Source: Deferribacterales bacterium (GTDB lineage Bacteria; Chrysiogenota; Deferribacteres; Deferribacterales; Geovibrionaceae). From it: a stretch of 64,000 bases of DNA. This document shows, in pieces, positions 11,555-41,521 of the stretch (its first letter is position 1; every line of letters begins with the position of its first letter). The stretch covers positions 480,001 to 544,000 of the forward strand of contig JBFWJS010000002.1 in assembly GCA_050253075.1 (NCBI GenBank). The letters are read 5' to 3'. Position numbers and translations under genes: made by a program. The notes below the pieces were generated by a model that was given only the letters and a program-made list of their open reading frames with translations, ran no database searches and was not told the origin of the DNA.

Positions 11555-11642
11555 AGGTACAGGACTGTACCTCGCGAAGCGGGAGCCAATGCAGACCAGT
11601 TTGCATTAGGCGACACGAAAAAATAACACGGATGTTATTTTT
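11555..11642 (+). repeat. Family B GGA-loop four-hairpin element, copy B1, in the cytochrome 5' leader
   Basis: aggtac-AGGACT-gtacct cgc-gaa-gcg ggag hairpin cgacacga aaaaataac-ACGGAT-gttattttt. Confidence 0.8.
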
Positions 11643-11674
11643 GAGAAACTTTTCAGTTACAACGGAGGTGTAAA

Positions 11675-13597
11675 GTGCGTAAAGCAATACTTTTAACATT
11701 GATTGCCCTTCTTTCCGTTTCTGCATATGCATACGAGAGCGACTCGACATGCGTACGCTGCCACGGCGATGAGGTAATGATGAAAGAACTCGGATTTCCA
11801 CAGATGTACCTTGACCCTGCTAAGGTAGACGAAGAGGTAAACATGGGCGGAATATCCTGCGTCAGCTGCCACCTGGGCGATAATACAAAGCTGGACAAAG
11901 ACGCTGCCCACGAAGGCATGCCAAGACCATTCTACGCAGCAGTAGGTAAAAATCATAAATATCAGGCTGTCAGCAGAGAGATCACAAACTATGATCCTAT
12001 CCAGCCTAAAGGCACAAACAGAACAAAAGTTCTTATCAGAAAGCCTACAAACGAAGCTATGGCTAAAGAGCAGGGGATAAAAAACATCATCCAGCTCTAC
12101 TACCATGACCACGACCCTGAAACAATGGCATACAACCCTGAGATCGCAAGACAGACCTGCGGTAACTGCCATGAGAAGGAAGTAACAGATTACAACAAAT
12201 CAGGCATGGGACTTAACAAATACCAGAGAGGCTTTACTTCATGGACAGCATCACCTCCCGGACCACAGAACTGCGGTTACTGGTTCGGCGATGAAGCTAA
12301 CTATAAAGAAGTTAAAGGCGAATGCACAAAGCCTGAAGAATATAAAGGCACAATGGCTCAGGCAAGCGGAAGAGGCTGTAACAAGTGTCACGCTTCCTGC
12401 AACGACTGCCACTATGAAGGATATAAGAAATCTGAAGCAAGACATAAATTCACGGCTTCTCCTGATAAACTCTCCTGCTACGGAAGCGGTAAAGGTACTA
12501 TCTGCCACGCCGGTCCTATGGACAGAAGACGTGGAGCCGGTTTCCTCCGTGAAGAGTTCGCTTTCCCTGTGAACGAGCTCCCAAGAGATGCTCACGATGC
12601 AGCAGGTCTTCAGTGCAGCGACTGCCACACATTCAAAGACCACTCATACGGACATCTCGGCTCTGAAGATGCTAAGAAATCCTGCTCTAACTGCCACACA
12701 GAGATCTATGACGCAGTTAAATCAGGCGACCACCAGAATGTAGACTGTACATCATGCCACATTCAGGAAGTCGGCGCTTACCAGTTCACTTTCTGGGGCC
12801 CCGGTAAATCTGAAGGCATGCCTAACAAGTTTACAAAACATAAAGAATTCTACGGCAAACGAGACCAGCCTATGCTTGTGAAACATCCTGAATCAGGCCA
12901 GTGGATACCTCTTAAACCATACCCAATGGGAACAATGGGCATAGGTAAAGATGCTGCTCCTGAAGGTCTTAAGCTGAGAACTATCGAAAAAACAGAAGTA
13001 AAAGGCATCACCAAAATAGGCGAGCCTGAGAGCTTTGTTGTTGAGCGTAAAGCTGACCAGGTGAACGATATGTACATCATCACAGGTACACACGAAGGCT
13101 TCGAAACAAACGATAAGATGCTCGCTTGGATCCAGATGGACAAGATGTCTCACTCTGTAGGCAAAGCAAGAGACTGCGACAGCTGTCACTCTTCACACGA
13201 GCAGAACTTTACATCATGGTACACATACCAGAACGCTAACGATGTGAAAAAACCTTTCTTCGGCTCTTACACTATGAAAGCAGGAAAAGACGGTATCACA
13301 TTCGACAATTTCACAAACTCTGAGATAGTGCTCGCTGACGGCAGAAAGGTAAGCGACTTTGCTCCTTTCATCATCAACAACACACTCTGGAACGTGAAAG
13401 GCATCGACTTCGAACTGAAGTTCGACGACAAAAAATATGCTGAAGGCAAAGCAGAATATCTGCAGCTTTCCGCTAAACTGCATCACCTCATCAGCAAAGA
13501 GAAAGATGCTGCTAAGAAAGAAAAGCTCCAGCTCATCAAAACAGTGATGAACCACAACGTGGCTTACGCTAAAAAGATGCTCAAAGAGCTTAAGTAA
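11675..13597 (+). CDS. Exported multiheme cytochrome c (9 CxxCH plus one CX8CH)
   Basis: Sec signal peptide ending AYA; CVRCH, CVSCH, CGNCH, CNKCH, CNDCH, CSDCH, CSNCH, CTSCH, CDSCH, and CYGSGKGTICH; GTG start with GGAGG. Confidence 0.92.
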   Translation: MRKAILLTLIALLSVSAYAYESDSTCVRCHGDEVMMKELGFPQMYLDPAKVDEEVNMGGISCVSCHLGDNTKLDKDAAHEGMPRPFYAAVGKNHKYQAVSREITNYDPIQPKGTNRTKVLIRKPTNEAMAKEQGIKNIIQLYYHDHDPETMAYNPEIARQTCGNCHEKEVTDYNKSGMGLNKYQRGFTSWTASPPGPQNCGYWFGDEANYKEVKGECTKPEEYKGTMAQASGRGCNKCHASCNDCHYEGYKKSEARHKFTASPDKLSCYGSGKGTICHAGPMDRRRGAGFLREEFAFPVNELPRDAHDAAGLQCSDCHTFKDHSYGHLGSEDAKKSCSNCHTEIYDAVKSGDHQNVDCTSCHIQEVGAYQFTFWGPGKSEGMPNKFTKHKEFYGKRDQPMLVKHPESGQWIPLKPYPMGTMGIGKDAAPEGLKLRTIEKTEVKGITKIGEPESFVVERKADQVNDMYIITGTHEGFETNDKMLAWIQMDKMSHSVGKARDCDSCHSSHEQNFTSWYTYQNANDVKKPFFGSYTMKAGKDGITFDNFTNSEIVLADGRKVSDFAPFIINNTLWNVKGIDFELKFDDKKYAEGKAEYLQLSAKLHHLISKEKDAAKKEKLQLIKTVMNHNVAYAKKMLKELK

Positions 13598-13659
13598 TAT
13601 TGTGAGATAACTAACAAGATAGAAAGAGTACGCAAGTACAGACCTCACACACACTGAAC

Positions 13660-13689
13660 GGGGCAGCCTTTTGGCTGCCCTTTTCTTTT
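13660..13689 (+). terminator. Rho-independent terminator
   Basis: gggcagcc-tttt-ggctgccc followed by ttttctttt. Confidence 0.85.
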
Positions 13690-13731
13690 CTGTAATACTT
13701 AGCCTGTATTCAGGCGTAATGACCCAATATT

Positions 13732-14901
13732 TTACTTAATAACCTTATAGAGAGTGTCGGTGACCCGCTGGACATCTTCGTCCGTCATAGCGGGGTATAT
13801 AGGTATGGAGAAGCATCTGTCGTAATACTTCATAGCCGTCGGCAGGTTGTTCATGCTGTAGCCCTTTTCTGCATAGTAAGGCAGCATAGGCACAGGGATA
13901 TAGTGCATCTGCAGCCCTATCCCCTCCTCACGCATTCTGTTGAAGAGCTCCGCACGTGTAATGGCGAGGCTGTCGAAATATGTCTGGACAACATAAAGGT
14001 GATAAGCACTCCGCCTGTCGTAGTCGTACAGAGGCATGAATGAGCCCTTTGATGCGAATACTGCGTCATATCCTTGTGCTATCTCCCTGCGCCGCTCCAC
14101 AAAGCCGTCCAGCCGCTTCATCTGTGAAACACCTAGAGCGCACTGAAAGTCTGTGATGCGGTAATTAAAGCCCAGATCCTGCATCTCGTAATACCACGGA
14201 TTCAGATTCCCGTGGGTATCGTATGCCAGATTTTTATATTGGAATTCGTCTTTATCTTTTGTAATGCCGTGTGTGCGGAGAGCCTGTACCTTTCTGTGCA
14301 GTTTTTCGCTGTTGGTTGTTATCGCTCCGCCCTCGCCTGTCGTCACATGCTTCACCGGGTGAAAGGAGAGTATAGACATGTCAGACGATGTACAGCCGCC
14401 AGCCATGTGTCCGCCGAATTCCGCACCGAGGGAGTGTGCGCAGTCTTCCACCACGCCCAGATCGAATACTTCTTTCAGCTGTTTCAGTTTGTCCTGATCC
14501 ACGGGTCTGCCTGTCATATGGGTCACAAATATATGCCTGATATCGTCATCTGCACGCAAAAGGTCGACACACATGTCGAAGTCCATGTTCCCTTCGGGCT
14601 CTATATCTACAAATACGGGGATGCCCCCTGCATAGAGTACGGCATTGGCCGTGGCGGCAAATGTTATAGGAGAGACGAGCACCTTCTCGCCCGGCTTAAT
14701 GAGGGCAAGCGCAGCAAGGTGCAGGGCAGCAGTACCGCTGGAAACGGCAGTGGCGTATATTGCACCCGTATATTCGGATATCTCGTGCTCGAAACGCTCG
14801 ACAGCGGGGCCTGTCGTCAGAAAGTCGGAGCGCAAAGCCTCCACAACAGCGTCAATGTCGCTCTGGTCTATGCTCTGTTTTCCGTATGGGATGAACTTCA
14901 T
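13732..14901 (-). CDS. pseC: UDP-4-amino-4,6-dideoxy-N-acetyl-beta-L-altrosamine transaminase
   Basis: IPYGKQSID, FLTTGP, SFHPVKHVTTGEGG (PLP lysine), WYYEMQDLGFNYR. Confidence 0.9.
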   Translation of the reverse strand: MKFIPYGKQSIDQSDIDAVVEALRSDFLTTGPAVERFEHEISEYTGAIYATAVSSGTAALHLAALALIKPGEKVLVSPITFAATANAVLYAGGIPVFVDIEPEGNMDFDMCVDLLRADDDIRHIFVTHMTGRPVDQDKLKQLKEVFDLGVVEDCAHSLGAEFGGHMAGGCTSSDMSILSFHPVKHVTTGEGGAITTNSEKLHRKVQALRTHGITKDKDEFQYKNLAYDTHGNLNPWYYEMQDLGFNYRITDFQCALGVSQMKRLDGFVERRREIAQGYDAVFASKGSFMPLYDYDRRSAYHLYVVQTYFDSLAITRAELFNRMREEGIGLQMHYIPVPMLPYYAEKGYSMNNLPTAMKYYDRCFSIPIYPAMTDEDVQRVTDTLYKVIK

Positions 14902-16937
<2,036 letters not shown>

Positions 16938-16945
<8 letters not shown>

Positions 16946-17495
16946 ATCTACCTCTGTATTCCCTTTCCAGCATGCTCATGATGAGCACGTTTTCGTATAT
17001 ACCCTGTTTAGAATACACCTCTCGGAGCACTCCGTCAGTCTTAAATCCGAACTTCTCGTAAAATCTGATGGCTCGTTCGTTTGATTCCAGCACCTCGAGC
17101 CTCAGCGAGTGAAACTCCATAGCGTCGAACACTATCTTACATATCGCATGCATGAGTGTCTGCCCTGCGCCTTTTATTGCTTCATCGGGTCTGGCGTATA
17201 TGCCGAGGAATGCCGATTTATTCCTATAGTCTGCCTCGGTCACGGCGATGGAGCCTATGTATGTGCCCTCTCTTATCACGATGAAGTAGAACCTGTCTTC
17301 ACGCCCTTCAAGCCCTCTGGCGTATTCTAGGTGTTCTGAGACCTTTATCTCGTCGGTGGTGAACATGAACTTGCGTATCTCGGGGTCATTCCGCCAGTCG
17401 AGCACCATTAGCAGTTCGTCGTCCGATGCGGAGCAGTAGCTCTTTATCGCTACGCCTTCCATGCTGAATTTTGAGAGTATATCTGCTGCTTTCAT
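16938..17495 (-). CDS. pseH: GNAT N-acetyltransferase of the pseudaminic acid pathway
   Basis: WRNDPEIRKFM, LEVLESNERAIRFYEKFGF; pse context. Confidence 0.8.
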
Positions 17496-18310
17496 CTGTT
17501 CTCATCCAGTATATCTGCGGCTCTGTGCAGCTCCTGAAGGCGGAGCATGCTCACACCTGCGTCGATCTCGTCGTTTATGTTTTCGTATACCTTCTTCTGC
17601 ACTACATTTTCATTTATGATGCCTATCCATCTCTTTTCTCTGAACAGGCGCATTATCTCCGCATAGCCGAAGAACTCGTTCTCTTTATACAGGCTGTCGT
17701 AAACGGCACACAAAGCTGCATAATCCTCCGGTCTGTCCAGAGTGATGCGTATCTCCGCCCCTCCGCATACGGATGGCTGATAGGACATCTTTCTGAATCC
17801 GCCGTTTATTATGTACGGGGTCACATGCTCCCTCTCGTGCTTTGCCTCTGCTTCCTCGTGGGCTTTTTTCAATGCTTCAAAGGTGAAGACCTCTGCATCC
17901 AGCCCGTGGGGGAATATCCTCGGGTGCACATTGGACATGTAGTCCGCATTTTCAAACTTTCTCAGCATGTCGTCTATGATATCTGAGTCTATGCACGGGC
18001 AGTCGCTCGTCACCCTGACGACGACATCCACGCCGAATTTATTCGCGGCACCGTAATATCTGCTGAGCACATCGTCCATGCTCCCTCTGAAAAAGCTGAC
18101 TCCCGCCTCTTCGCAAAGGGCTGCCACGGCATCGTCCTCGGGGTGGTCTGTTGTCGCTATTATCACTTCATCCAGCATCACACAGCGTCTGAGGCGCTTT
18201 ATCACCTGATGCAGAGCTGTCTCTGAACCGCCGTAGGGGAGAGCTTTCAGTATCTTCCCGGGGAGCCTTGTGGAGGCATATCTTGCCTGTACTATCGCAG
18301 CTGTTTTCAT
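17492..18310 (-). CDS. SpsF-like nonulosonate cytidylyltransferase (PseF role inferred)
   Basis: IVQARYASTRLPGK, RGSMDDVLSRY, RVTSDCP, REHVTPYI, RITLD. Confidence 0.8.
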   Translation of the reverse strand: MKTAAIVQARYASTRLPGKILKALPYGGSETALHQVIKRLRRCVMLDEVIIATTDHPEDDAVAALCEEAGVSFFRGSMDDVLSRYYGAANKFGVDVVVRVTSDCPCIDSDIIDDMLRKFENADYMSNVHPRIFPHGLDAEVFTFEALKKAHEEAEAKHEREHVTPYIINGGFRKMSYQPSVCGGAEIRITLDRPEDYAALCAVYDSLYKENEFFGYAEIMRLFREKRWIGIINENVVQKKVYENINDEIDAGVSMLRLQELHRAADILDENR

Positions 18311-18452
18311 ATGGTTACCCGCTTGTTTGATATTACATTTATAATAATCGGATTTTCCATCAAAGTATTAAGCCCCCCACGCTTAAAAGTGCTTGAAACA
18401 ATCATACAGGGGAGTAATATAAAGACTATATTATTTTTATGGGGTTTTTAAA

Positions 18453-19031
18453 ATGCAGATAGACGCTAGAGGGATGGCTTGCCCGCAGCCCGTCCTGTTG
18501 ATCAAAGCTGAACTTGAAAAGATCGAAGAAGGAGTTGTCACCATTCTGGTAGACAATAAAGGCTCCAGCATAAACGTCAAAAACTTTTGTGAAGCAAACG
18601 GGCACACTGTAAGTGTCACAGAGTTCGACGGATATTACAAAATAGACGCAGCCAAAGGATACGACTGCGCCATAGCCGAGGAGAAGTCCGCAGACGAAAA
18701 TATAGTGGTCTTCATCAGCACAGAGTGCATCGGCTCCGAAGAGGTCGAACTGGGCAAAATGCTCATGAAAGGCTTCATCGGAAACATTAAAAATCTGGAC
18801 GTAAAGCCAAAGACAATTATATTCGTTAACAACAGCGTGAAGATGCTTACGCTGAACGAAGAGACCATTAAGCTGGTGAATGAGATAGAGGAGCTCGGCA
18901 TAGAGGTTCTCGCTTGCGGTGCATGTCTCGAATACTTCGGCATAGTGGACAAGCTCGCCGCAGGTAAGGTGACAGACGCACTCACCGTCGGCAACAAACT
19001 GTTCAACGCTGACAAGATAGTCAGACTGTAA
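18453..19031 (+). CDS. yedF: Sulfurtransferase-like selenium metabolism protein (TusA + DsrE domains)
   Basis: DARGMACPQP; ELGKMLMKGF; ACGACLEYFG. Confidence 0.85.
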   Translation: MQIDARGMACPQPVLLIKAELEKIEEGVVTILVDNKGSSINVKNFCEANGHTVSVTEFDGYYKIDAAKGYDCAIAEEKSADENIVVFISTECIGSEEVELGKMLMKGFIGNIKNLDVKPKTIIFVNNSVKMLTLNEETIKLVNEIEELGIEVLACGACLEYFGIVDKLAAGKVTDALTVGNKLFNADKIVRL

Positions 19032-19043
19032 AGGAGCTGAAAT

Positions 19044-19700
19044 ATATTTCCGTTAAAGGACTCGATACCTTCGTCGACATTCCCTTTTGTCAACTGGGCT
19101 ATCATACTGGTTAACGTTTTCGTATTCATGACAATGCTTAAGATGCCTCCCCAGCAGGAGCACGCATTCATCTTCGAGTACGGGCTGATACCTAAGAGGC
19201 TTTTTGTGGAGAACTCGATGCTGACGGCGGCAGACAGATACCTGCCCATACTCTCATCTATGTTCATGCACGGCGGATTTATGCATATAATAGGCAACAT
19301 GTACTTCCTGTTCATCTTCGGCGATAATGTCGAGGACAAGCTGGGGCATGTCAGATATCTGTTCATATACATTATGTTCGGGCTGGCTGCTGCCGCTTCA
19401 CAGGTTATCATGTTCCCTGACTCTGTCATACCCATGGTCGGCGCCAGCGGTGCCGTTGCGGGGGTGATGGGGGCTTACTTGGTGTTTTATCCTCATGCAA
19501 AGGTTAAGACGCTCATAATTATTATTATTTTTATAACAGTGGCGAATATTCCTGCTTTCATCTTCCTGCTCTTATGGTTTCTGTTTCAATTCCTGAACGG
19601 AACAGGCGCAGGGAACGGCGGTGTGGCCTGGTGGGCTCATATCGGCGGATTCGTAGCGGGGCTAGTATATGCAATTTACTTTCTCCGAAAGAGAATTTGA
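19044..19700 (+). CDS. Rhomboid family intramembrane serine protease (probable ATA start)
   Basis: MFMHGGFMHIIGNM, GASG, WWAHIGG. The family-like N-terminus xFPLKDSIPS starts at ATA 19044 after AAGGAG; the first ATG is at 19128. Confidence 0.88.
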   Translation: MFPLKDSIPSSTFPFVNWAIILVNVFVFMTMLKMPPQQEHAFIFEYGLIPKRLFVENSMLTAADRYLPILSSMFMHGGFMHIIGNMYFLFIFGDNVEDKLGHVRYLFIYIMFGLAAAASQVIMFPDSVIPMVGASGAVAGVMGAYLVFYPHAKVKTLIIIIIFITVANIPAFIFLLLWFLFQFLNGTGAGNGGVAWWAHIGGFVAGLVYAIYFLRKRI

Positions 19701-19714
19701 AACGGAGCTGATTT

Positions 19715-19942
19715 ATGTGTTTAGGTTTTCCAGGAAAGATTTTAGAAAAAGATGAATTCGGCGCAATAGTCGACATCGGCGGTACAAAGAGGGACGTATC
19801 TACCATGATACTCCCCGACGAAGTAGAGGTAGGCGACTGGGTGATGGTTCACGCAGGGATGGCTATCGCAAAGATGGACCCCGAAGAGGCGCAGAAGACA
19901 CTTCAGGTTTTAAGGGAATTCGCAGATGGCATTGATGATTGA
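19715..19942 (+). CDS. hypC: Hydrogenase maturation chaperone
   Basis: MCLGFPGK, VGDWVMVHAGMAI. Confidence 0.92.
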   Translation: MCLGFPGKILEKDEFGAIVDIGGTKRDVSTMILPDEVEVGDWVMVHAGMAIAKMDPEEAQKTLQVLREFADGIDD

Positions 19943-21008
19943 TGATTTCAGAGATGCCGAGCTTTGTAAAAAGCTGATAGCAAAGATTGAAAAAGAGGCA
20001 GTGAAAGACTGCTACCGCTTTATGGAAGTGTGCGGAAGCCATACCATGGCGATAGCTAAATTCGGCATTAAAAGCATACTGCCAAAGAATATAGACCTCA
20101 TATCCGGCCCGGGATGCCCCGTGTGCGTCACTCCACAGTGTGAGATAGACGCCCTGTTCGACATAGCATCCGGAGGAGCCGTGATAGCGACATTCGGCGA
20201 TATGATGCGTGTGCCCGGTGCAGACGGGCAGAACCTGCAGAAGATGAAATCCGCAGGGGCAGACGTGCGCATAGTATTCTCCCCGCTTGATACACTTAAG
20301 ATAGCGAAAGAGACCGATAAGGAAGTGGTCTTCGTCGGCATCGGCTTTGAAACCACAGCCCCAGCCGTCGCAGGGCTCGCACTCATGGCTAAAAAAGGCG
20401 GATATAAGAATGTCAGCATCACACCGTATAACAAGACAATGCCCGAGGTTCTCTCTCTGATACTCTCAGACGACAACCTTAAGATAAACGGATTCGTATG
20501 CCCCGGTCATGTGACAGCCGTCACAGGCATAGGGCTCTACGACCCTGTCGTTGCGCAGGGGATGTCTGCCGTTGTCACAGGTTTCGAGCCTGTGGACATA
20601 CTCAGCTCCATCCTCGAAATGGTGCGTCAGGTCAATACCGGCGATTACAAGGCGATGAACATGTATTCACGTGTGGTATCCGACGAAGGGAACGAAAAGG
20701 CCCGTCAGGTGATAGACACTGTTTATGAAAAGCAAGGCTGCTGGTGGCGTGGCATAGGCTTCATCGAAGACAGCGGACTCGCCTTCCGTAAGGAATACGA
20801 AGAATTCGACGCTTTCAAAAGATTTAACGTCAATCTCGAAGGGGACGACGAGATAGCAGGATGCTCCTGCGGAGACGTTCTGAAAGGATATATAAAGCCG
20901 AACGAGTGCGCTCTTTTCGGCTCTGCCTGCACCCCCGTAAACCCCGTTGGACCATGCATGGTCTCCTCCGAGGGCGCATGTGCGGCAGCATATAAATACG
21001 GCATATAA
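19926..21008 (+). CDS. hypD: Hydrogenase maturation protein
   Basis: MEVCGSHT, SGPGCPVCV, GIGFETT, PGHV, GPCMVSSEGACAA. Confidence 0.95.
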   Translation: MALMIDDFRDAELCKKLIAKIEKEAVKDCYRFMEVCGSHTMAIAKFGIKSILPKNIDLISGPGCPVCVTPQCEIDALFDIASGGAVIATFGDMMRVPGADGQNLQKMKSAGADVRIVFSPLDTLKIAKETDKEVVFVGIGFETTAPAVAGLALMAKKGGYKNVSITPYNKTMPEVLSLILSDDNLKINGFVCPGHVTAVTGIGLYDPVVAQGMSAVVTGFEPVDILSSILEMVRQVNTGDYKAMNMYSRVVSDEGNEKARQVIDTVYEKQGCWWRGIGFIEDSGLAFRKEYEEFDAFKRFNVNLEGDDEIAGCSCGDVLKGYIKPNECALFGSACTPVNPVGPCMVSSEGACAAAYKYGI

Positions 21009-21098
21009 GGCGCAGGATGCGCCTCACGAAGTGGGAGTGAGATTGGATGTATTCAATCGAAACGACCCGAATTAATTTTTCATGGACGAAAAATTAAT
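21008..21098 (+). repeat. Family B element, copy B2, abutting the hypD stop
   Basis: aggcgc-AGGAT-gcgcct cac-gaa-gtg ggag hairpin cgacccga attaatttttc-ATGGAC-gaaaaattaat; a partial second copy lies at 21123-21142. Confidence 0.85.
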
Positions 21099-21152
21099 AG
21101 TGACAAATAAATACGGAATATAAGGCACACGATGTGCCTCACTAAATATTAA

Positions 21153-21258
21153 GTCATCCTGAATGACTAGCCGCAGGCTGTACGAATCTATTATGGATCA
21201 ATAGATGAGTAAATGAAGGATCTGAAACTTTCAGATTCTTCGCAAAGCTCAGAATGAC
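21153..21258. repeat. Family A palindrome with an internal insert
   Basis: gtcatcctga..[atctatt-ATGGATC-aatagat]..gaaggatct..agattcttcg..ctcagaatgac. Confidence 0.85.
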
Positions 21259-21275
21259 GAGAGACGGAGACATAT

Positions 21276-23033: not shown

Positions 23034-23361
23034 CGAAGTAATAAAATTCCGCTCCGAGTGCTATAAAGCATCCGACGGGGCGGGAGTGTATCACCTGTAT
23101 TCGGCAAAGAGCGATCTGAGGAAGCTGTTCAAAGCGGACGACTTCACCGAGCACTTCGGCATGCTGACGAAAAACAGCGAGCACGCAGGACTTATGATCG
23201 TTTCAGAAAATATAAAAGACACACTGGCAGAAGTAAAATATGTCGAACATATAAGTGAACGAGGGGAAATGGTTACATTCTATTCGAAAACTTTTTTCAC
23301 CCGAGAGAACGGCCAGTGGAAGATCCTGAAAGAAAAAAGGGAACAAACGTCAGGTTTTTGA
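23014..23361 (+). CDS. Hypothetical protein (possibly NTF2/YchJ-like fold)
   Basis: Overlaps the hflX end, has an AGGAG SD, and ends FTRENGQWKI. Confidence 0.55.
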   Translation: MTPLSPSEVIKFRSECYKASDGAGVYHLYSAKSDLRKLFKADDFTEHFGMLTKNSEHAGLMIVSENIKDTLAEVKYVEHISERGEMVTFYSKTFFTRENGQWKILKEKREQTSGF

Positions 23362-23370
23362 AATTTACTC

Positions 23371-23399
23371 TTGAAAAAGGTATCATAATATTCTATAAG
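23371..23399 (+). promoter_or_regulatory. Sigma70-type promoter for the tRNA pair
   Basis: TTGAAA-17 bp-TATAAG. Confidence 0.7.
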
Positions 23400-28116: not shown

Positions 28117-28122
28117 TCTACT

Positions 28123-28151: not shown

Positions 28152-28182
28152 CCCTTAAATTCAAAAAAGCCCGTTTCAACCC

Positions 28183-28413
28183 CTAGCCCCTCAAAAGTTT
28201 TGTTGCCGAATCTCTATAACAAACAAAGCTACGTCATTCTGAGCGTAGTGAAGAATCTGATACCATTAGAGAGTCCACATGTTCAGATCCTTCGGCTAAA
28301 GCCTCAGGATGACTAAAAAATTTTCCTGAAACATAAAAACCCCAATCTTATTATTAAAATTGGGGTTTTTCTTATTTTACTTCAAAATTTCGACACGTCT
28401 TTTAAGTCCCTTG
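28183..28413. mobile_element. MITE family C, copy 1 (231 bp)
   Basis: Flanked by the exact 10-bp direct repeat gtttcaaccc (28173-28182 and 28414-28423); colinear with 62887-63116; contains a family A core at 28233-28313. Confidence 0.85.
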
Positions 28414-30363: not shown

Positions 30364-30467
30364 AGCATCCTCTCTGTTTAGTTTATATAGATGTTTAATC
30401 TAATGAATTTAACTCTGTTAAACAAGATTGAATTTAAAATTTCGCTCTTTAAATTGTCTCATGATTT

Positions 30468-30941
30468 ATGTATATTCCACGTATGGATGAAAAAACACAG
30501 TTTCAGGCATCATACTTAATGACGGAAAAGCTCTACCGCACGATGGTATACGGGATATTCCTCTATCCCCTTTTCGTAGCAGGGGTTGAGACCTTCCATT
30601 GGGGCATTTTCCACTTTCTGAACCATGAAACGGTGAAGAAGATGGGGCTCGTCTTCATGGTGCTGACCATAGCGTCATTCCCGCTGACACACGCCACATA
30701 CAGGCTTTTCACCGGAGGGATAAGCGACATCGCACCACTCGGGCGCAGACTCGTCTATATCGAAATACTGAACATGGGGATATCCGAGCTGATCAGCTTT
30801 TACGGAATAGTGATATACATCACCAGTGCCGATCTGAAGTTCTTTTATCTCTTTTTCATCATATCCTTCATACACCTGCTGACCATCAGACCTAGCCGAA
30901 AAAGGTGGCAAAATCACCTTGATAAGATTTCTGTGCATTAA
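30468..30941 (+). CDS. Hypothetical membrane protein (about 4 TM)
   Basis: Hydrophobic segments; co-oriented with the downstream genes. Confidence 0.65.
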   Translation: MYIPRMDEKTQFQASYLMTEKLYRTMVYGIFLYPLFVAGVETFHWGIFHFLNHETVKKMGLVFMVLTIASFPLTHATYRLFTGGISDIAPLGRRLVYIEILNMGISELISFYGIVIYITSADLKFFYLFFIISFIHLLTIRPSRKRWQNHLDKISVH

Positions 30942-30980
30942 ACGGCTTTGCAAAAAAACTTTCTTTTGATAAAATGACTT

Positions 30981-33823: not shown

Positions 33824-34228
33824 ATGTCATCCATGCTGAAACACAAAGCTGTAGTGCTGAATATCGAGAGCGACGGCACCGCAGTGGTAGAGATAGCCAG
33901 AGGGAGCGCATGTTCTGCCTGTGGGGAAAAGAGCTCCTGCACCATCACAGACGATACAAACATCCGCCTCAGATTCAAAAATTCATCACACCTCAAAGCA
34001 GGCGATATGGTAGAGATCGGCATAGAGAAGCAGAGCTTCTTTAAAGGGCTCTTCATCGTTTATATCGTACCGCTGATACTGATGCTGGCATCCGCCGTCA
34101 TCACAGACTCCATAACGGACAAACAGCTCATAACGGCAGGCGTAACCCTTGCGGTGCTTATCATGTACTTTATCGGATTAAAACTGTTACACAACGGTGA
34201 AGACAAACAGTCGTACCGATTACTTTAA
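33824..34228 (+). CDS. RseC/MucC (SoxR-reducing system) family protein
   Basis: RGSACSACGEKSSC, GDMVEIG, YIVPLI, two TM segments. Confidence 0.85.
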   Translation: MSSMLKHKAVVLNIESDGTAVVEIARGSACSACGEKSSCTITDDTNIRLRFKNSSHLKAGDMVEIGIEKQSFFKGLFIVYIVPLILMLASAVITDSITDKQLITAGVTLAVLIMYFIGLKLLHNGEDKQSYRLL

Positions 34229-34356
34229 TCTTTTACCGTCACAGTAAAAATTAAGGTCGTACATCCTGAACAAGAACATACCTATACCCATTATTTTAAG
34301 ATATTTAAATACTGAATCTATCTAAAAAGAAAGCACGTTTTGTGTAATAATTACAC

Positions 34357-34860
34357 ATGAAGTATTTCCTGACGATATTAATGCTAATCTCTTTCTGTGC
34401 TGCAGACGCATTTCAGTGTGACCACGCCGAGGTTATCGACGGCGACACAATCAGATGCGACATAGCCGACCTGCCCGAGATATTCGGCAGCGGGATATCC
34501 GTCCGCCTGAAGGACTGCGACTCGCCCGAGATACGCACCGCAGACAAGGCAGAAAAGGCCGCAGGACACAAGGCAAAGCAGGAACTGACCGAAAAGGTGA
34601 CAGGGAAGCAGATAGAGCTGAAGAATGTATCAAGAGGGAAATATTTCAGACTGGTAGCAGATGTTTACGCTGATTCTGCAAAGCTCACATGCCCACAGGA
34701 CAAGCTGGCATACGCCCCGCCCGCCTTTAAATGCGGCGCAAAGACAAAATGCTCGCAGATGTCCTCATGCGAAGAAGCATATTTTTATCTGCAAAAATGC
34801 GGTCTAAATGGGCTCGACAGAGACAAAGACGGCATCCCGTGCGAAAATATATGTAGGTAA
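34357..34860 (+). CDS. Secreted thermonuclease (SNase-like) with C-terminal Excalibur Ca-binding domain
   Basis: VIDGDT, VRLKDCDSPE, GKYFRLVA; CSQMSSCEEA..LDRDKDGIPCE. Confidence 0.85.
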   Translation: MKYFLTILMLISFCAADAFQCDHAEVIDGDTIRCDIADLPEIFGSGISVRLKDCDSPEIRTADKAEKAAGHKAKQELTEKVTGKQIELKNVSRGKYFRLVADVYADSAKLTCPQDKLAYAPPAFKCGAKTKCSQMSSCEEAYFYLQKCGLNGLDRDKDGIPCENICR

Positions 34861-34936
34861 GACCTGCATAAAAGTTATATTTTCTGCTGTCCTAGAGCAC
34901 ATAACAAAAATAATTTCGCATATTTGATTGTATTTT

Positions 34937-35057
34937 GTCATTCAGAGGATTTTAGTCCGAAGAATCTTATCCATACATAATCTCTAACAAGTAAATAGGC
35001 TTGCTATAGACACAGCGGTATCAGATTGCCGCACCTCCTTCGGAGGTTCGCAATGAC
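34937..35057. repeat. Family A palindrome, long variant
   Basis: gtcattcagag..gaagaatct..agattgccgc..cgcaatgac. Confidence 0.75.
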
Positions 35058-35089
35058 TTATATGTGTTAAGTTTTATGATATATGTCCT

Positions 35090-35231
35090 ACGAGTACGTG
35101 CCTACTCCCGCAAGCGAGGCACATCCTGTGGCTAAAAGTTACATTTTTCTGCTGTCCTAGCAGAAAAATTCGGGTCGCACAGCACGAACGAGTACGTGCC
35201 TACTCCCGCAAGCGAGGCACATCCTGTGCCT
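35090..35231 (-). repeat. Family B copies B3 (35143-35231, complete) and B4 (35090-35132, 5' part; its 3' hairpin remnant is at 34870-34895)
   Basis: Minus strand: aggcac-AGGAT-gtgcct cgc-tt-gcg ggag hairpin cgacccga atttttctgct-AGGAC-agcagaaaaat; abuts the hisD stop. Confidence 0.85.
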
Positions 35232-36508
35232 TAATCCTCGTCGCTTCTTATGATTACAGAATTCCTGTGCGCTATGAGCTCCTCGGATTCTGCCAGAACT
35301 CTGATGTCGGGCATGTCAGCCATGAGCTGTTCTTTGCTGTAGTATATGATGCTCGATTTCTTCTGAAAGTCATATGTGCCGAGGGGTGAGAAGAACTTCG
35401 CAGTTCCCCCCGTAGGCAGTACGTGGTTTGGACCTGCGTAATAATCGCCCACAGGCTCGGGTGTATTTGTACCGAGGAAGATAGCTCCTGCGTTGCGTAT
35501 CTTCAGCATGTATTCCATAGGGTTAGCCACACATAGCTCAAGGTGCTCCACGGCTATCTCGTTTGTGATGTCGGCTGCCTCGGCAAGGTCTTCCGTAACG
35601 ATGATAGCGCCGTATTTCTCTATAGATTTCTTCGCTATCTCCTTTTTCGGCAGTTCCTCAAGCTGAGCATAAACAGAGCTTTCGATCTCTTTCGCCAGCT
35701 CCATATCGTCTGTGACTACGATGGCAGATGCGAGCTCGTCGTGCTCTGCCTGAGACAGCATATCCGCAGCTACATAGTCAGGGTCTGCAGTGCTGTCTGC
35801 GACAATGAGTATCTCGCTCGGTCCTGCTATCATGTCTATATCCACCTGACCAAATACCATCTTCTTAGCGAGGGCGACATATATATTCCCCGGGCCGACT
35901 ATCTTGCACACTCTGGGCACTGTCTCCGTGCCGTATGCGAGAGCTGCGACAGCCTGTGCACCGCCTATCTTGAAGCCTCTGTCCACACCGGCGAGGTAAG
36001 CGGCAGCAAGCACAACGGGGTTCACCTCTCCGCCCGTAGCGGGGGTGACCATGACTATCTCGTCCACACCTGCGACCTTCGCAGGAAGAACATTCATCAG
36101 CACGGATGAAGGATAAACAGCCTTTCCGCCGGGAACATATACACCGACAGATTCCAGAGCAGTGACCTTCTGACCGAGGAAAGTGCCCGGAGCTTTTTCA
36201 TACATCCATGTGTTTTCGAGCTGTTTTTCGTGAAAGGAGATAACATTTGCCTTCGCATTTTCCAGAGCTTCTTTCAGCCTGTCGTCGAGGGCATCCCATG
36301 CAGATTTCATCTCTTCCTTTGTGATCTCCATGCCGTTTTTGGCTATGTCGAACTTGTCAAATCTAAGAGAAAGCTCACATAGAGCCTCATCCCCTCTCTT
36401 TTTCACGTCGTTTATGATGTTGAGGACAGTCTGGAGGTATTCCCCCTCCATTATCTCCCCTCTTTTTAATATGTCTTGTAAACGTTTGTCATTCTTATCT
36501 ATTATCAT
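35231..36508 (-). CDS. hisD: Histidinol dehydrogenase
   Basis: [48 protein letters not shown]. Confidence 0.97.
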
Positions 36509-37561
36509 CTATACACCTGTAAAAAATCCTTTCCCGTTCTTCTTGCTGTGGTAGAGCCTGCCGTCTGCTATCTTTACGATGTCTTCCGTGGTGTCGTCCT
36601 TAGTTATATCTCCGGGGACGGAAACAAGCCCCCCTGAGAGGCTCGCCACATCGCCGAAACCATAAGCGTTGAACACCTTTTTACCTATGTCCTGCAGTCT
36701 CTCCACCAGTATGAAGAGGTTCTCTATGTTTGCATGGGGTACGATGAGGAAAAATTCATCCCCGCCGAAGCGCCCTAATATGTCGCTGGTACGCAGACCT
36801 TCCTGTATCTCATCACTGATGGCTCTTATGATGGTGTCGCCAGTGACATGGCCTGCCGTGTCGTTTATCTGCTTAAAGTTGTCTATATCCATAAGGATAA
36901 AAACGAATCCCTGATCATAGCGCTTATACTTCGCCATGAAGTTATCTAGGAACTCACCCATGGCGAGCTTATTATATGTGCCCGTCATGAAGTCTGTTCT
37001 GGTCTGGCGGAAGATCACTTCCGTGTTATACAGCTTCTGCATTGAAACAGATGCGATGGACGCCAGATCCTTTATGAAATCAGTGGCTATATCACCGCCG
37101 AATTTCGACTCGCTCCTGCTATAGAGGTTAAGGCTGCCTATTATCTTTCCGCTCTTTACCAGCGGTGCAAAGAGGTATGAGCCCATATCTTCGTAAACAT
37201 TGAATTCGCTGATTATATTAGTAGCGTTGTCGTCGTTGTATGGTCTCTTTTCCAGATAAAAAGCCTTAAACACGTTTTCAGGCATGAAATATATACGATA
37301 ATCAAGATTGTTACTTTCACGTTCAAAGTCAAGTTCATCAGCATTCAAAAAGAGCACTGCCCTGTCCACTCCGAAGATATCCTCCAGATATCTAAGAGGT
37401 TTTTCGATCATTTCCTTAAGATTTTCAGCGAGGAGGAAGGCGAATTCCACAGTTTTAAAACCTGCGTGCTTTGCCTCGTTATTCTTAACCAGCTCCATAA
37501 GGTTGGTCAGCTCGCCTTTCAGGTCAGAGTTCTCTTTGATCATGTTGTTGACTTTGTTCAT
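36509..37561 (-). CDS. Diguanylate cyclase with coiled-coil/GAF-like (DUF484-like) input
   Basis: DIDNFKQINDTAGH, RTSD I-site, RFGGDEF, AD.RLY.SK..GK. Confidence 0.9.
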   Translation of the reverse strand: MNKVNNMIKENSDLKGELTNLMELVKNNEAKHAGFKTVEFAFLLAENLKEMIEKPLRYLEDIFGVDRAVLFLNADELDFERESNNLDYRIYFMPENVFKAFYLEKRPYNDDNATNIISEFNVYEDMGSYLFAPLVKSGKIIGSLNLYSRSESKFGGDIATDFIKDLASIASVSMQKLYNTEVIFRQTRTDFMTGTYNKLAMGEFLDNFMAKYKRYDQGFVFILMDIDNFKQINDTAGHVTGDTIIRAISDEIQEGLRTSDILGRFGGDEFFLIVPHANIENLFILVERLQDIGKKVFNAYGFGDVASLSGGLVSVPGDITKDDTTEDIVKIADGRLYHSKKNGKGFFTGV

Positions 37562-39954
37562 TTAAGCTCCCCCAGATTCCTGCCCACAGCACCGTTCACG
37601 ACGAGCGGCACGTCCAGCTCCATCACGTTTTCCATGATGTCCTGCACATGTTTACTGAAAGCATCGACATCTTTGTCGCTCACCTCAAAGACAAGTTCGT
37701 CATGCACCTGCAGAACGATGAGCGCATCATACTTCTTATCGTCCAAAAGCTCCTGACACTCAACCATCGCCAGCTTTATAATGTCTGCTGCCGAGCCCTG
37801 CATAGGCACGTTGGTTGCGATGCGTTCGCCCCTCATTGCCACCGTGCGGTTCTTGCTGCGTATCTCACGTATGAAACGCTTTCTCCCCGCCAGTGTCTCT
37901 GCATAGCCCTTTTCCCTTGTCTCGTTGGCTATCTTTTCGATGAACGACTTCACTTTCGGATATGTCGCAAAGTATTTTTCTATAAATTTCTTGGCACTCT
38001 TCTGGTCTACGCCCGTATCACGGGAAAGCCCGAATGCGGACAGACCGTAAAGTATGCCGAAGTTCACAGCCTTTGCCAGACGGCGCATGTCGCTGTCCAC
38101 GGCATTCGGAGCAACGCCGAATATACCGCAGGCTGTTTTTGTATGTATGTCTTCGTTGTTTCTGTATGCTTCGCCCAGCCTCTCGTCACCTGTGAGGTGT
38201 GCGAGGATGCGCAGTTCTATCTGTGAATAGTCGAAGGATACAAAGCTGTAGCCTTCCTTTGCCACAAAAGCCTCACGGAGCTTTACGCCCCATTCGCCCT
38301 TTATTGGGATGTTCTGCATGTTCGGGTTAACGGAGCTGAGTCGCCCTGTTGCCGTACCCGTCTGGCGGAAGGATGAATGTATACGTCCGTCGCCCGCCAC
38401 GTAGTCTTTCAGAGGGAGAGCATATGTGGAGAGCAGTTTTGCCAGCTCTCTGTATTTCAGAATGGATTCCAGCATGTGTGCAAACAGAGGGTTCAGAGGT
38501 ATCATACCCCTGATGGATTCCTCGTCTGTGCTGAATCCCGTCTTCGTCTTTTTCAGCCCCTCGAGCCCAAGATCCTCAAAGAGGTATACCTGAAGCTGTT
38601 TCGGGGAATTAAGGTTTATGTCGTAGCCTACGGCTGTCTTTATCTCTTCGCTGACCTTCCCTACTTCATCCTGAAGCTTGTCAGCCACCTTCGCCATGAT
38701 GTCGGCGTCGAAGCCTATGCCGTTCGACTCCATCTCGCCCAGACAGTATGCCACAGGGAGCTCCATATCGAGGTAGACGTCCATCAGTCCGTTCTGCTCC
38801 AGCTTCGTCTTTTCACTTTTGGCATTCGCCACCACAGTGCCGATGAACTGATCCATTGTGTCAGTCTTGCCCATTGTGATGCCGCCGCTGTCGGGGTCGT
38901 TCAGCCAGCTCATGAGGAAGACGTCGAAAGCCTTTTCGTACTTCTCGCCTGTGAGCCTGTAAATATTTTTTATATCATAGAAAAACTGTGCATCTTTCAG
39001 GCTGTGCCCGTCACGCTCACAGTATTTCTTTCCGTCTGTCACATATATCTTTCCGTCCACAAACAGCGCAATGGAGACATCCTTAACATCCCCCTGCTCC
39101 ACAGTGGCGACATCCGGCTGAACATCCTCACTGTCGGATTCTGCGAAGAGCTTCGCATGGATAGTCTTCAGTTCGAGGTCTGTGAGCATCTCGCTCAGCT
39201 TCTTTTCATCATCGATGATCTCTACCTGCGGCACTTCGTCCAGTATGTCCAGACCCACAAGGTCATAGCTGAGGTATGCATTGTCTTTATTCTCTATCAG
39301 CTTGTCTTTCAGCTTACCTTTTACCTCATCCACATGTTCGTAGATGCCGTCCAGCGAGCCGTATTCTATCAGCAGTTTTGCAGCAGTTTTTACACCTACC
39401 CCTGCCACACCGGGGATATTATCCGCCGTATCCCCTGCGAGGGCGAGCAGCTCACGAACCTTTTCAGGCCCCACGCCGAACTTCTCCACAACCATGTCTC
39501 TGCCGAGGAATTCACCCTTCTGGCTGTCGAATATCTTCACTCTGTCGTCCACTATCTGAAAGATATCCTTGTCCTTTGTCAGCATGCCGACCTCGTCGTC
39601 GGTATGTGCTGCGAGGGTCGCCATTATGTCGTCCCCTTCGTATCCGTCTATCTTATAGTAGGCTACGCCGAGGAGAGGTATCACCTCGTCCATAATGCCG
39701 AACTGCACTCCGAGATCCTCCGGTGTTGCGTCCCTTGTGGCTTTATATTCAGGGTGTATGTCGTGCCTGCGGTTCTTCCCTTTAGCGTCGAAAACCACGG
39801 CGACATTCTCTTTCCCGTATTTGTTTATCAGTGTGATGATGCTCTGTATAACTCCGTGTATGACGGATGTGGGCACACCCTTAGAGTTTGTGAGCGGAGG
39901 CGATTTGTGATATGTGCGAAAGGCTATGTAGCTTCCGTCTATGATGATCTTCAT
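37558..39954 (-). CDS. polA: DNA polymerase I
   Basis: 5'-3' exonuclease (IDG, EGDD, GDTADNIPGV), TATGRLSSVNPNMQNIP, DYSQIELR, AKAVNFGILYG, QVHDEL. Confidence 0.96.
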   Translation of the reverse strand: MKIIIDGSYIAFRTYHKSPPLTNSKGVPTSVIHGVIQSIITLINKYGKENVAVVFDAKGKNRRHDIHPEYKATRDATPEDLGVQFGIMDEVIPLLGVAYYKIDGYEGDDIMATLAAHTDDEVGMLTKDKDIFQIVDDRVKIFDSQKGEFLGRDMVVEKFGVGPEKVRELLALAGDTADNIPGVAGVGVKTAAKLLIEYGSLDGIYEHVDEVKGKLKDKLIENKDNAYLSYDLVGLDILDEVPQVEIIDDEKKLSEMLTDLELKTIHAKLFAESDSEDVQPDVATVEQGDVKDVSIALFVDGKIYVTDGKKYCERDGHSLKDAQFFYDIKNIYRLTGEKYEKAFDVFLMSWLNDPDSGGITMGKTDTMDQFIGTVVANAKSEKTKLEQNGLMDVYLDMELPVAYCLGEMESNGIGFDADIMAKVADKLQDEVGKVSEEIKTAVGYDINLNSPKQLQVYLFEDLGLEGLKKTKTGFSTDEESIRGMIPLNPLFAHMLESILKYRELAKLLSTYALPLKDYVAGDGRIHSSFRQTGTATGRLSSVNPNMQNIPIKGEWGVKLREAFVAKEGYSFVSFDYSQIELRILAHLTGDERLGEAYRNNEDIHTKTACGIFGVAPNAVDSDMRRLAKAVNFGILYGLSAFGLSRDTGVDQKSAKKFIEKYFATYPKVKSFIEKIANETREKGYAETLAGRKRFIREIRSKNRTVAMRGERIATNVPMQGSAADIIKLAMVECQELLDDKKYDALIVLQVHDELVFEVSDKDVDAFSKHVQDIMENVMELDVPLVVNGAVGRNLGELK

Positions 39955-39956
39955 TT

Positions 39957-40967
39957 TTATCCTTCGAGCTTTTCGCTTTTCAGCGGCCTGCCCATCAGCG
40001 ATGTAACAGAGTCATAAGGCTTCTTACCGAGGTATAAAATCTCGTAAACCTCGTTGATAATTGGCGCATCCACGCCGAGCTTCTCTGTCAGTTTTTTAGC
40101 AGCCATTGTGGTGTAAACCCCTTCGGCTACCATATTCATGCTTCCTGTTATCTCGTCGAGGGTCATCCCCTCTGCTATCTTTAATCCGACCGTCCTGTTA
40201 CGGGAGAGATCGCCCGTGCATGTCAGCACTAGGTCGCCCATGCCCGACAGCCCCATCAGCGTCTCAGGCTTTCCGCCGAGCGCAACGCCCAGCCTAGCCA
40301 TCTCCGCCAGCCCTCTGGTGATGAGCCCCGCCCTCGCATTATATCCAAAGCCGAGCCCGTCTGCTATCCCCGTGGCGATTGCCAGCACGTTCTTTATCGC
40401 ACCGCCGACCTCCACACCGGGTATATCGTCTGTGTAGTAAGCTCTAAAATAGTCCGTGGACAGCTTCTCCTGCCACCATATGGCGCATTCCTCGCATGAT
40501 GATGCGATGCTCACCGCTGTGGGCTTTTTAGACACGACCTCCTTTGCAAAGGAAGGCCCCGAAAGTATGGAAAACTCTGCATCGTAACAGCTTTTCAGCA
40601 CATGCACGATGAGGTCACCGGTGTCTATCTCTATACCTTTTGTCGCTACCAGCAGCTTCTTCCCTGTGAGAGCGTCTTTATAGTCTGTCGCCACCTTTCT
40701 CGAAAACTGAGTAGGCACGACCCATATTATCCTGTCTGTATCTATGTCGTTAAGCTGGCTGAAGTTTCTAGCAGAAATATTTTCATTCAGCTTTACTCCC
40801 GGCATGAAGAGAGTGTTCTCATGCTGTTCGTTTATAGCTTTCACCAGCTCGTCTTCAAACGCGTAAATATCTACAGCAAAACCGTTTCCCGCTGCCAGCT
40901 CTGCCAGCGCAGTTCCCCAGTTGCCACCGCCTATTACAGCCATTTTTTCTTGCATGAATAACCCCAT
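39957..40967 (-). CDS. gpsA: NAD(P)H-dependent glycerol-3-phosphate dehydrogenase
   Basis: GGGNWGTALA, TKGIE, SGPSFA, KNVLAIA, GDLVLTC..SRN. Confidence 0.95.
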   Translation of the reverse strand: MGLFMQEKMAVIGGGNWGTALAELAAGNGFAVDIYAFEDELVKAINEQHENTLFMPGVKLNENISARNFSQLNDIDTDRIIWVVPTQFSRKVATDYKDALTGKKLLVATKGIEIDTGDLIVHVLKSCYDAEFSILSGPSFAKEVVSKKPTAVSIASSCEECAIWWQEKLSTDYFRAYYTDDIPGVEVGGAIKNVLAIATGIADGLGFGYNARAGLITRGLAEMARLGVALGGKPETLMGLSGMGDLVLTCTGDLSRNRTVGLKIAEGMTLDEITGSMNMVAEGVYTTMAAKKLTEKLGVDAPIINEVYEILYLGKKPYDSVTSLMGRPLKSEKLEG

Positions 40968-41014
40968 GATGATATCTTGTACTTAGGATACGCAAAAAAA
41001 TTGTAGGTGATTTT

Positions 41015-41296
41015 ATGCTTCAAATCAATCAATATGACATCGAAATGCTGAAAAACATCAATGAGCAGCGTGCTTGGGAGATTTTCCCGGTGTTTCTGGA
41101 GCATAATCCTGATGTCTGCATATGCAGAAGCTGTGTGCTGGACATCATGGCTATCACCCTCAATACCCTGCCACCATGCTATCACTCCGAAGAGCATAAT
41201 ATGAGCGCAGCCAGAAACAAGGTTTCCGACGAGGAGATCTACCGTAAGATGAAAGAGGCTTCCCTTATAGTTAAAGCTCGTCCACGTCACGATTAG
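41015..41296 (+). CDS. ComFB family protein
   Basis: NINE..C.C.SC.LDIMAITLNTLPP.Y ... PRHD. Confidence 0.85.
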   Translation: MLQINQYDIEMLKNINEQRAWEIFPVFLEHNPDVCICRSCVLDIMAITLNTLPPCYHSEEHNMSAARNKVSDEEIYRKMKEASLIVKARPRHD

Positions 41297-41521
41297 TCAG
41301 ATTATTTTTCCATCCTTGAAAAAATAATTCGGTCGTTCGACTTGTTAAAAGCAAGTCTCTCTCTCGCTACGCGCACTGCTTCCATGCAGTGGAGTCAGAT
41401 TATTTTTCTCTCCATAGAAAACATTTGATGGTCTCAAATGTTTCTGCACCTAGCTAGCTGCAAAAATAATTCGGTCGTTCGACTTGTTAAAAGCAAGTCT
41501 CGCTCTCGCTCCGCGCGCTGC
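41295..41521 (-). repeat. Family B tandem copies B5 (41295-41391) and B6 (41393-41521, expanded last loop)
   Basis: Minus strand: cactgc-ATGGAA-gcagtg cgc-gta-gcg agag hairpin cgaccga attattttttc-AAGGAT-ggaaaaataat. Confidence 0.85.

Follow-up and report, generated by a model that had tools for sequence, protein, structure and literature searches.

A dispersed four-hairpin repeat with CsrA-type loops and duplicated gene ends in Deferribacterales

A 64,000-nt stretch of a Deferribacterales genome (contig JBFWJS010000002.1, positions 480,001 to 544,000; the whole stretch is referred to here as the window and its genome as G000) carries at four loci a non-coding element of about 105 nt, composed of four hairpins in a row and a conserved tail, in which the two outer hairpins present the same type of GGA loop. 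The family extends well beyond the window, and a subset of its members lie between two copies of the end of a host gene, some with guide-like complementarity to the target just upstream of the first hairpin. We favour, at close to even confidence, the view that it is a non-autonomous, guide-directed homing element that replaces gene ends. This insertion signature, the replaced gene end together with its guide-like complement, was absent from the initial annotation of the window, made by a model from the sequence alone, and is the more unusual feature of the family. Throughout, G023, G024 and G025 denote congeners, and L followed by a number denotes a locus.

Gene-end duplications and guide-like complements

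The survey covered 190 arrays, which are the 284 matches to a covariance model of the unit (R1, built from 12 short-form units) less duplicates and those arrays for which a locus end lay too close; the relatives' loci were chosen from the best-scoring matches and not at random. Thirty-five of these arrays lie between two 26-98 bp copies of flanking DNA, the duplication starting at the tail of the element and ending near stem 1, and they represent 30 independent targets of the general form X-(element-X)n. A total of 41 duplications was first found, of which 36 start at the tail; the five starting elsewhere were set aside, as was one that proved to be a copy of the unit itself. Within G000, five loci stand between direct repeats of 33-92 bp, and 7 of 38 loci reach a score of at least 30, as against 0.6% of 795 control regions, five of the seven being long flank duplications.

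Twenty-five of the 35 duplications copy the 3′ end of the gene that lies upstream. An in-register stop codon survives in the downstream copy of 23 of these 25 coding duplications, and in 11 the stop differs from the upstream one. Sense-codon differences between the two copies are synonymous 43 times and non-synonymous 17 times, whereas one neutrally decaying copy would give 35-46% synonymous changes (p = 5e-5 against 46%), and the excess persists when the last four codons are left out (23 versus 7, p = 6e-4). With G000 as outgroup, the downstream copy runs on into the flank of the empty allele; where the copies differ, the outgroup matches the downstream copy at about 24 sites and the upstream copy at 15, a sum over 13 cases of which some are off register by one codon. 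Since the copies differ mostly at synonymous sites, keep their stops in most cases and, on the downstream side, are continuous with the empty allele, their sequences indicate that two working alleles met, either because the upstream ending arrived with the element or because an empty allele renewed the downstream ending. A unit within a 92-bp duplication free of coding differences has its best match in the unit at the same gene of another species, and L238, one of three full units from metagenomes, shows a gene-end duplication as well. At L088 and L122 (unit near 3423-3532) the duplicated part is a ribosome site and gene start, not a gene end, so that gene starts appear to be restorable in the same manner. 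Two control repeats, both described below, behave otherwise: no coding duplication was found at 96 clusters of a co-resident Ssn-type repeat, and no gene-end duplication at 28 loci of TwoAYGGAY in another class, one of which has a tandem-unit repeat. No foreign gene ends captured upstream of units were found in G000.

In 11 of the 35 duplications, the 23 nt that end at stem 1 can pair with the target over the junction with a score of at least 8, as against only 1.2% of mismatched pairs (p = 3e-5), and the signal is centred on the junction, falling to background level upstream of it. The displaced ending attains the same score in only four of the 35, two of which are remnants of older units (p = 5e-4). 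The clearest candidate guides span 14 nt (L062), 13 nt (L070 and L097), 12 nt (L103) and 10 nt (L010). At one gene, guide and target change in step between two species (L020 and L186), and at L030 and L094 the complement accounts for altered last codons. The junction itself is marked by a G followed by A or T at 29 of 35 sites, against a background of 35%, and its position varies by 0-2 nt.

The folded unit, its distribution and its loops

Each unit runs through stem 1 (loop A(N)GGA(Y)), stem 2, a purine-rich linker, stem 3, an AT-rich stem 4 (again with loop A(N)GGA(Y)) and a conserved tail, approximately TAATCAG, 10-12 nt past stem 4. Stem 2 comprises 3 bp, and the long forms are lengthened by an extra hairpin inserted in its loop, as in about half of the G000 units; stem 3 usually bears an ACTTGT-like loop. 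The initial annotation placed the units on the right positions and strands and described stems 1, 2 and 4 with their GGA loops, but it ended the unit at stem 4, short of the tail, and overlooked the stem-3 loop, while its linker CGAC..CGAA is typical of one subgroup and not of the whole family. The window holds the following units and adjoining features.

11490..11505, plus strand: sigma-54-like -24/-12 promoter motif; upstream of unit 1, retained in congeners without the element
11555..11659, plus strand: full unit 1, stems 1-4 at 11555-11642, then the tail; R1 90.9 bits; seed of the model
20992..21008, plus strand: last codons and stop of hypD, the upstream functional copy of the duplicated gene end; family D17
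21008..21106, plus strand: full unit 2, beginning at the hypD stop codon; R1 90.6 bits; seed; site empty in G023, G024, G025 and G031
21107..21145, plus strand: second, displaced hypD end, then a different stem-1 variant; KYGI-stop kept, one synonymous change
35090..35136, minus strand: partial tandem copy beside unit 3, with stem 1, stem 2 and the first half of stem 3; family D14, 96% identical
35128..35231, minus strand: full unit 3, beginning at the hisD stop codon; R1 80 bits; seed
41286..41391, minus strand: full unit 4; R1 81.1 bits; seed; tail overlaps the stop codon of the convergent open reading frame (ORF) 41015-41296 (plus strand)
41393..41524, minus strand: degenerate tandem unit 5, without stem 1 and with a rearranged stem 4; family D5; R1 25.1 bits

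Units 2 and 3 thus begin, as had been described, at the stop codons of hypD and hisD (positions 21008 and 35231). The hypD site is a short version of the duplications above, which the initial annotation overlooked: the ending is repeated with a single synonymous change and is followed by a stem-1 variant that carries compensatory changes, and on its sequence 21107..21145 is the remnant of an older unit. Being too short for the score filter, this repeat is not among the 35 counted. The tandem copy reported beside unit 4 at 41393-41521 is present, extending to 41524, but in the degenerate state listed (25 bits).

The four full window units fold better than dinucleotide shuffles, both as RNA and as DNA on either strand (z -2.4 to -6.6). 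Stem cells are paired at 92.2% versus 59.6% in shuffles among 45 G000 units, which were fitted to the model and have its seeds among them, and at 89.5% versus 54.5% among 129 distinct units from relatives, for which the covariation score is 0.78 against 0.19 in shuffles that ignore relatedness among units. Mutual information recovers the four helices and no other, so that the covariation suggested initially proves strong in all four stems, whether judged from the G000 units, the relatives' units or mutual information; no covarying basal stem closing the four hairpins was detected. G-T pairs outnumber A-C pairs on the GGA strand by 108 to 36, which identifies it as the folding strand, although tolerance of G-T does not separate RNA from single-stranded DNA. 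The stem-2 GNA triloop was considered as proof of single-stranded DNA, a GCGNAGC-like word being found in 181 of 271 units, but stem-2 loops vary and the word is not decisive. Terminal inverted repeats, as in miniature inverted-repeat transposable elements of DDE transposases, the IS1634 type included, are lacking, the two ends of the unit not being complementary.

Profiles derived from the window units found 36 clusters in G000 and none in a shuffled genome (iterated profiles), and a hairpin scan added two, giving 38 loci; R1 finds at least 46 units. The four-locus element initially described is therefore real but belongs to a far larger family. R1 has matches in 32 of the 68 genomes of the phylum, namely in all 15 of its own family, 15 of 21 in family f7 and one of seven in f6, while the remaining seven families have none; because this screen scored no more than 57 candidates in any genome, its per-genome counts are minimum values. 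Fuller counts gave 4, 25, 15 and 97 copies in G023, G024, G025 and G029, respectively. Dispersed copies within G000 are just 70-85% alike. Like repeats, from stem 1 to stem 4 and tail, are matched by R1 in another class, in 4 of the 151 genomes sampled, and the kind is thus wider than this phylum, with no duplication seen at the five loci concerned. The sister repeats L281-L285 of another class have the same outer hairpins and tail and are nested among GCTGTTGAAAAA-type inverted repeats. A metagenome pattern scan returned four matches, three of them full units, whereas the six genome-contig and four viral-contig matches from pattern scans did not fit R1, and two further viral scans were empty.

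The occupancy of the sites differs sharply among relatives. A unit is present in none of the 14 orthologous regions of the window's four sites, and among 35 congener arrays mapped to G000 the site is empty there for 19 of the 25 that have both flanks mapped and for 6 of the 10 that have a single flank. From these empty sites it follows that the family is mobile; some genes are hit in several species. Together with the covariation and the confinement of the consensus loops to one strand, this upholds the earlier notion of a self-spreading module that folds as a single strand. As to placement, 72 of the 190 arrays begin no more than about 20 nt from a stop codon on their own strand, and in 36 the stop of a convergent gene lies inside the tail, as at unit 4. 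Between co-directional genes, 19 G000 loci are sense and 6 antisense (25 loci, crude gene calls, p = 0.015), and five loci adjoin the 5′ ends of tRNA or tmRNA. At L007, L009, L028, L034 and L037 the unit is separated by 11-17 nt from the mature 5′ terminus of the RNA that follows, tmRNA in one case and a tRNA in four, and RNase P processing would free it as a leader.

Both outer loops fit the CsrA consensus, as given in PMC7652899, in 194 of 271 units but on the reverse strand in only one of 271. Taken singly, CA(N)GGANG occurs in 234 of 271 stem-1 loops and YA(N)GGANR in 221 of 271 stem-4 loops, against 1/271 in reverse complements, and 76 of the 271 units carry a near-exact site of the kind obtained by in vitro selection (SELEX). 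The GGA loops were thus aptly assigned to the CsrA motif as far as sequence can tell. The genome has csrA, whose product carries a C-terminal extension, and an adjacent fliW; csrA is found in 60 of the 68 phylum genomes, including all 32 with the element, and 28 csrA-positive genomes have no R1 match. The predicted CsrA binding is compatible with every reading considered here and, because most units lie on the transcribed strand, is likely an added property.

It is unlikely that the units are instead host-selected CsrA-binding RNA modules, acting as a distributed sponge or as regulators of mRNA ends and leaders, whose folds would be kept by RNA function and whose duplications would be by-products of recombination. 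Such modules would agree with the one-strand consensus and its SELEX-like sites, the G-T excess on the GGA strand, the sense bias and the presence of csrA wherever the element occurs, although the G-T excess does not tell RNA from single-stranded DNA. The regulatory network proposed initially sits poorly with copy numbers of 4-97 among relatives, with sites that are mostly unshared, with the 6 of 25 antisense loci and with the 28 csrA genomes that lack the element; nor do the units form a conserved locus across related species, as Csr/Rsm-type RNAs do, their sites being empty in congeners. Moreover, G000 possesses fliW, the product of which is a protein antagonist of CsrA described in PMC7652899 as anti-correlated with the BarA-UvrY system that drives the Csr sRNAs. 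Host selection for CsrA binding also leaves the fixed tail junction, the G[AT] site and the guide unexplained.

Relation to known systems and neighbouring features

In the window only tRNAs reach the Rfam gathering score, matches at relaxed thresholds being at chance level, which agrees with the initial failure to recognise a named family. The nearest relative in idea is TwoAYGGAY (RF01731), for which a CsrA match was proposed in PMC4333381 and a sponge role and mobile-like spread were added in a preprint (bioRxiv 10.64898/2026.09.22.753630) that calls the link unresolved; the combined idea of sponge and mobility is therefore already published for that repeat. Both are intergenic and multi-copy, with two A(Y)GGA(Y) hairpins, strong copy-number variation and a location beside repeats of the repetitive extragenic palindromic (REP) type (PMC2864571, PMC4333381). 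However, the TwoAYGGAY hairpins are described as adjacent, on a shared basal stem and in divergent doublets, whereas here they are the outer two of four in a row, with stems 2 and 3 standing between them, no closing stem and head-to-tail arrays. RF01731 has no match at E<=10 in G000 and exceeds its 43-bit gathering score in none of the 68 phylum genomes; conversely, R1 does not match the 28 loci fetched around RF01731 hits. A circular permutation of TwoAYGGAY, considered because tandem arrays put stem 4 beside stem 1, was rejected since RF01731 does not match the arrays. Gene-end duplications, absent from those 28 loci, go unmentioned in the portion of the preprint seen. As a CsrA-loop repeat the family is accordingly a variant of a known, unexplained kind, while its insertion signature is unusual.

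Several mobile systems share parts of that signature. The ends of IS200/IS605 and the REP/TnpA-REP system likewise have two similar subterminal hairpins and a strand-specific fold. In IS200/IS605 each palindrome is preceded on its 5′ side by a guide that selects the cut site through base pairing (PMC8266576), to which the complement found here may correspond. Here, by contrast, the putative guide is locus-specific and 6-14 nt long in place of a fixed tetranucleotide, the target is duplicated, there is no GTAG tag and no Y1 transposase was found in G000. Eleven of the 35 duplication loci would have a guide of this type at their left end, and none was detected at the right end. IS200/IS605 elements are not known to insert with a long target duplication, unlike the present family with its 26-98 bp duplications at 35 of 190 arrays. 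Restriction-modification genes (PMC2853133) and IS1549/IS1634 (PMC2266710) do show long variable direct repeats around the insert and amplification between them, but their inserts are protein-coding and their tabulated repeats near-identical, as opposed to a ~105-nt non-coding insert with one fixed end and allele-like copies. When phages and integrative and conjugative elements (ICEs) integrate in gene 3′ ends, attP restores the gene: the element brings a replacement 3′ end that pushes the former one aside, and the two differ synonymously. The duplications described here resemble this outcome, but phages and ICEs employ one integrase for one target, whereas the 35 cases of the present family involve 30 independent targets, and no integrase was linked to the units. 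The hairpin loops CAGGA(U/A/C)G and ANGGAN recall those of CsrB/CsrC and RsmX/Y/Z (PMC7652899), which are few conserved and separately transcribed genes with many sites; the element offers two sites per unit, its loci number in the tens and are unstable, and a scan of one locus detected neither a promoter nor a terminator belonging to it. In the literature covered, from which most subscription papers are missing, we found no paper that describes the family, or in which a non-coding repeat replaces gene ends under the direction of a guide.

The Ssn NTS/SRM system (PMC11893778) also involves hairpin repeats, which are acted on as single-stranded DNA during transformation. Its counterpart here is the other repeat family of the window, which has no gene-end duplications, and the Ssn-like genes do not track the element. 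This second family consists of GTCA-tagged palindromes, often in inverted pairs (window 505-589, 8116-8196, 21144-21259, 28163-28401, 42222-42416 and 62867-63133), resembles the Ssn-related motif and forms 96 clusters genome-wide under a strict pattern; 9 of 36 loci of the four-hairpin element have such a repeat no more than 250 bp away, against 78 of 823 intergenic regions. It flanks three Ssn-like small GIY-YIG genes in G000 (C2:446048-446344, C1:248292-248579 and C6:159854-160141) and the GIY-YIG gene L048:1151-1435, the 3′ end of which is repeated twice upstream of the gene. It is thus this other repeat, and not the four-hairpin element, that flanks Ssn-like genes; no unit was found in the screened Ssn-like loci, and units occur near such a gene at two G000 loci and at L048. 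A three-copy repeat of 144-180 nt (window 42273-42416, 62962-63105 and 28258-28401) consists partly of the second family together with an inner palindrome.

Among the window loci themselves, unit 1 lies in the leader of a multiheme cytochrome-like gene, the downstream ORF having weak cytochrome c family matches, and no unit is present at the orthologous site of G023, G024 or G025. An NtrC-family activator gene directly precedes the 11490..11505 motif. The interval 11490-11675 places unit 1 between the sigma-54-like motif and the ribosome site, with about 45 nt of extra sequence, and is the window's best spot for testing a regulatory effect. Unit 3 likewise has no counterpart at the orthologous sites of G023, G024 and G025. 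Convergent to unit 4, ORF 41015-41296 (plus strand) encodes 93 aa, with an end conserved in congeners and a stop inside the unit 4 tail. Its stop region also occurs where G023 and G024 have the empty allele, and ORF 40934-41290, which overlaps it on the minus strand, is probably spurious.

A proposed homing mechanism and its competitors

In the mechanism that we favour, the element would act as a folded single strand, with a dimeric protein supplied in trans binding the two outer same-loop hairpins. One end would be fixed right after the tail, while the other would fall within the host gene, 26-98 nt ahead of stem 1, at a point set by bases 5′ of stem 1 that pair with the target over 6-14 nt in the manner of the guide of IS200/IS605 ends. 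The moving piece would then consist of gene end, stop, spacer, four hairpins and tail. Joining would take place at a G[AT] site within another lineage's element-free allele of that gene, probably once DNA had been taken up. As a new ending would be supplied and the resident one displaced downstream, the host gene would stay intact. Tandem arrays could arise from repeated events or from slippage between copies, and rarer events may include jumps to new genes and the replacement of one unit by another. Every locus would keep its own element lineage, the fold of which must stay intact for the next move, and this proposal would account for diverged copies with near-perfect stems. Recent insertions do not appear to have come from elsewhere in G000, because units are 70-85% alike even where the duplication is fresh. 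The structure, the gain and loss of units, the duplications with their allele-like differences, the complementarity and the junction base are observed, whereas the single-stranded DNA intermediate, the role of the complement as a guide, the transfer between strains and the enzyme belong to the inference.

A number of observations count against this proposal. The duplication is absent from the other 155 of the 190 arrays, and the guide signal is not significant in them; there is no clear guide in 24 of the 35 duplications or at the window's four loci, and pairing of the stem 3-4 linker with the tail, which an IS608-like right end would predict, was not detected. A unit of another species is closest to the same-locus unit at just 3 of 9 shared loci and is not the closest in 8 of 12 comparisons, and, as each species was represented by a single genome, the comparison showed no donor and empty alleles side by side in any species. 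No mobilising protein came to light in searches that did not include IS91-type, IS110-type or DDE transposases: reverse transcriptase and Y1 transposase profiles have no match in the copy-rich G000, G029 and G054; the Ssn-like nuclease is patchy, does not track the element and was not found in G029 with the query used; a unit lies near only one of 42 screened loci, a Y1 locus, most of the 42 being loci for reverse transcriptases, Y1 or Ssn-like enzymes, and near none of 10 tyrosine recombinase loci. Clustering of the ORFs near units gave no recurring neighbour protein, and comEC, present in 65 of 68 genomes, does not discriminate.

The signature might also have arisen by template switching or break repair, in which a long target duplication is formed, the short inverted target copy is a scar of the event, and later recombination with empty alleles refreshes the downstream copy and yields the synonymous pattern. 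We regard this route as quite unlikely, although several observations would fit it: the complementarity is confined to loci with a duplication, the junctions vary by 0-2 nt, some downstream copies decay neutrally (L085 and L186), and restriction-modification genes are known to insert with long target duplications of variable length, chiefly in species that are naturally competent (PMC2853133). At L020, however, a 92-bp duplication without coding difference stands beside a complement with mismatches and a bulge, so that the complement looks older than the insertion event. At L030 the complement overlaps the last codons while the residues are unchanged, which suggests gradual selection, and the co-resident Ssn-type repeat has no such scars.

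Group I introns offer a model for an RNA route, in which the terminal G of the tail would attack an upstream site fixed by the guide, as in intron circularisation, and an occasional reverse transcriptase would copy the RNA back. The common junction G with a guide helix spanning the junction, the sense-strand bias and the five loci adjoining tRNA or tmRNA 5′ ends would suit such chemistry. Nevertheless, it is very improbable, since no reverse transcriptase was found in G000, G029 or G054, nor in any of the 13 genomes of genus g18, and the unit has no Rfam ribozyme match. A group I intron core is, moreover, much larger than the ~105-nt unit.

Should guide-directed homing hold, a recombinase or strand-transfer activity aimed by 6-14 nt of pairing would be rewriting protein C-termini between strains. 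More tentatively, and with the odds leaning against it, the family could represent a new class of minimal homing element, in which a protein-free fold of about 105 nt, carrying its own guide and a replacement gene end, would enter dozens of conserved genes without breaking them, relying on an enzyme of the host, on one present only transiently or on RNA chemistry of its own, while its twin loops would recruit CsrA and tie the spread of the element to a global regulator. This minimal-homing logic may extend to the sister repeats in other phyla. The spread and the intact folds of orphan GGA-loop repeats such as TwoAYGGAY are put as an open question in the preprint (bioRxiv 10.64898/2026.09.22.753630), and the proposal would provide a testable account of how such repeats spread, in which the 3′ junction is fixed, the upstream junction can be predicted and the guide can be mutated. 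Whether RNA sites and FliW act jointly on CsrA in one species is undetermined according to PMC7652899, and this family, in genomes such as G000, would be a place to test it.

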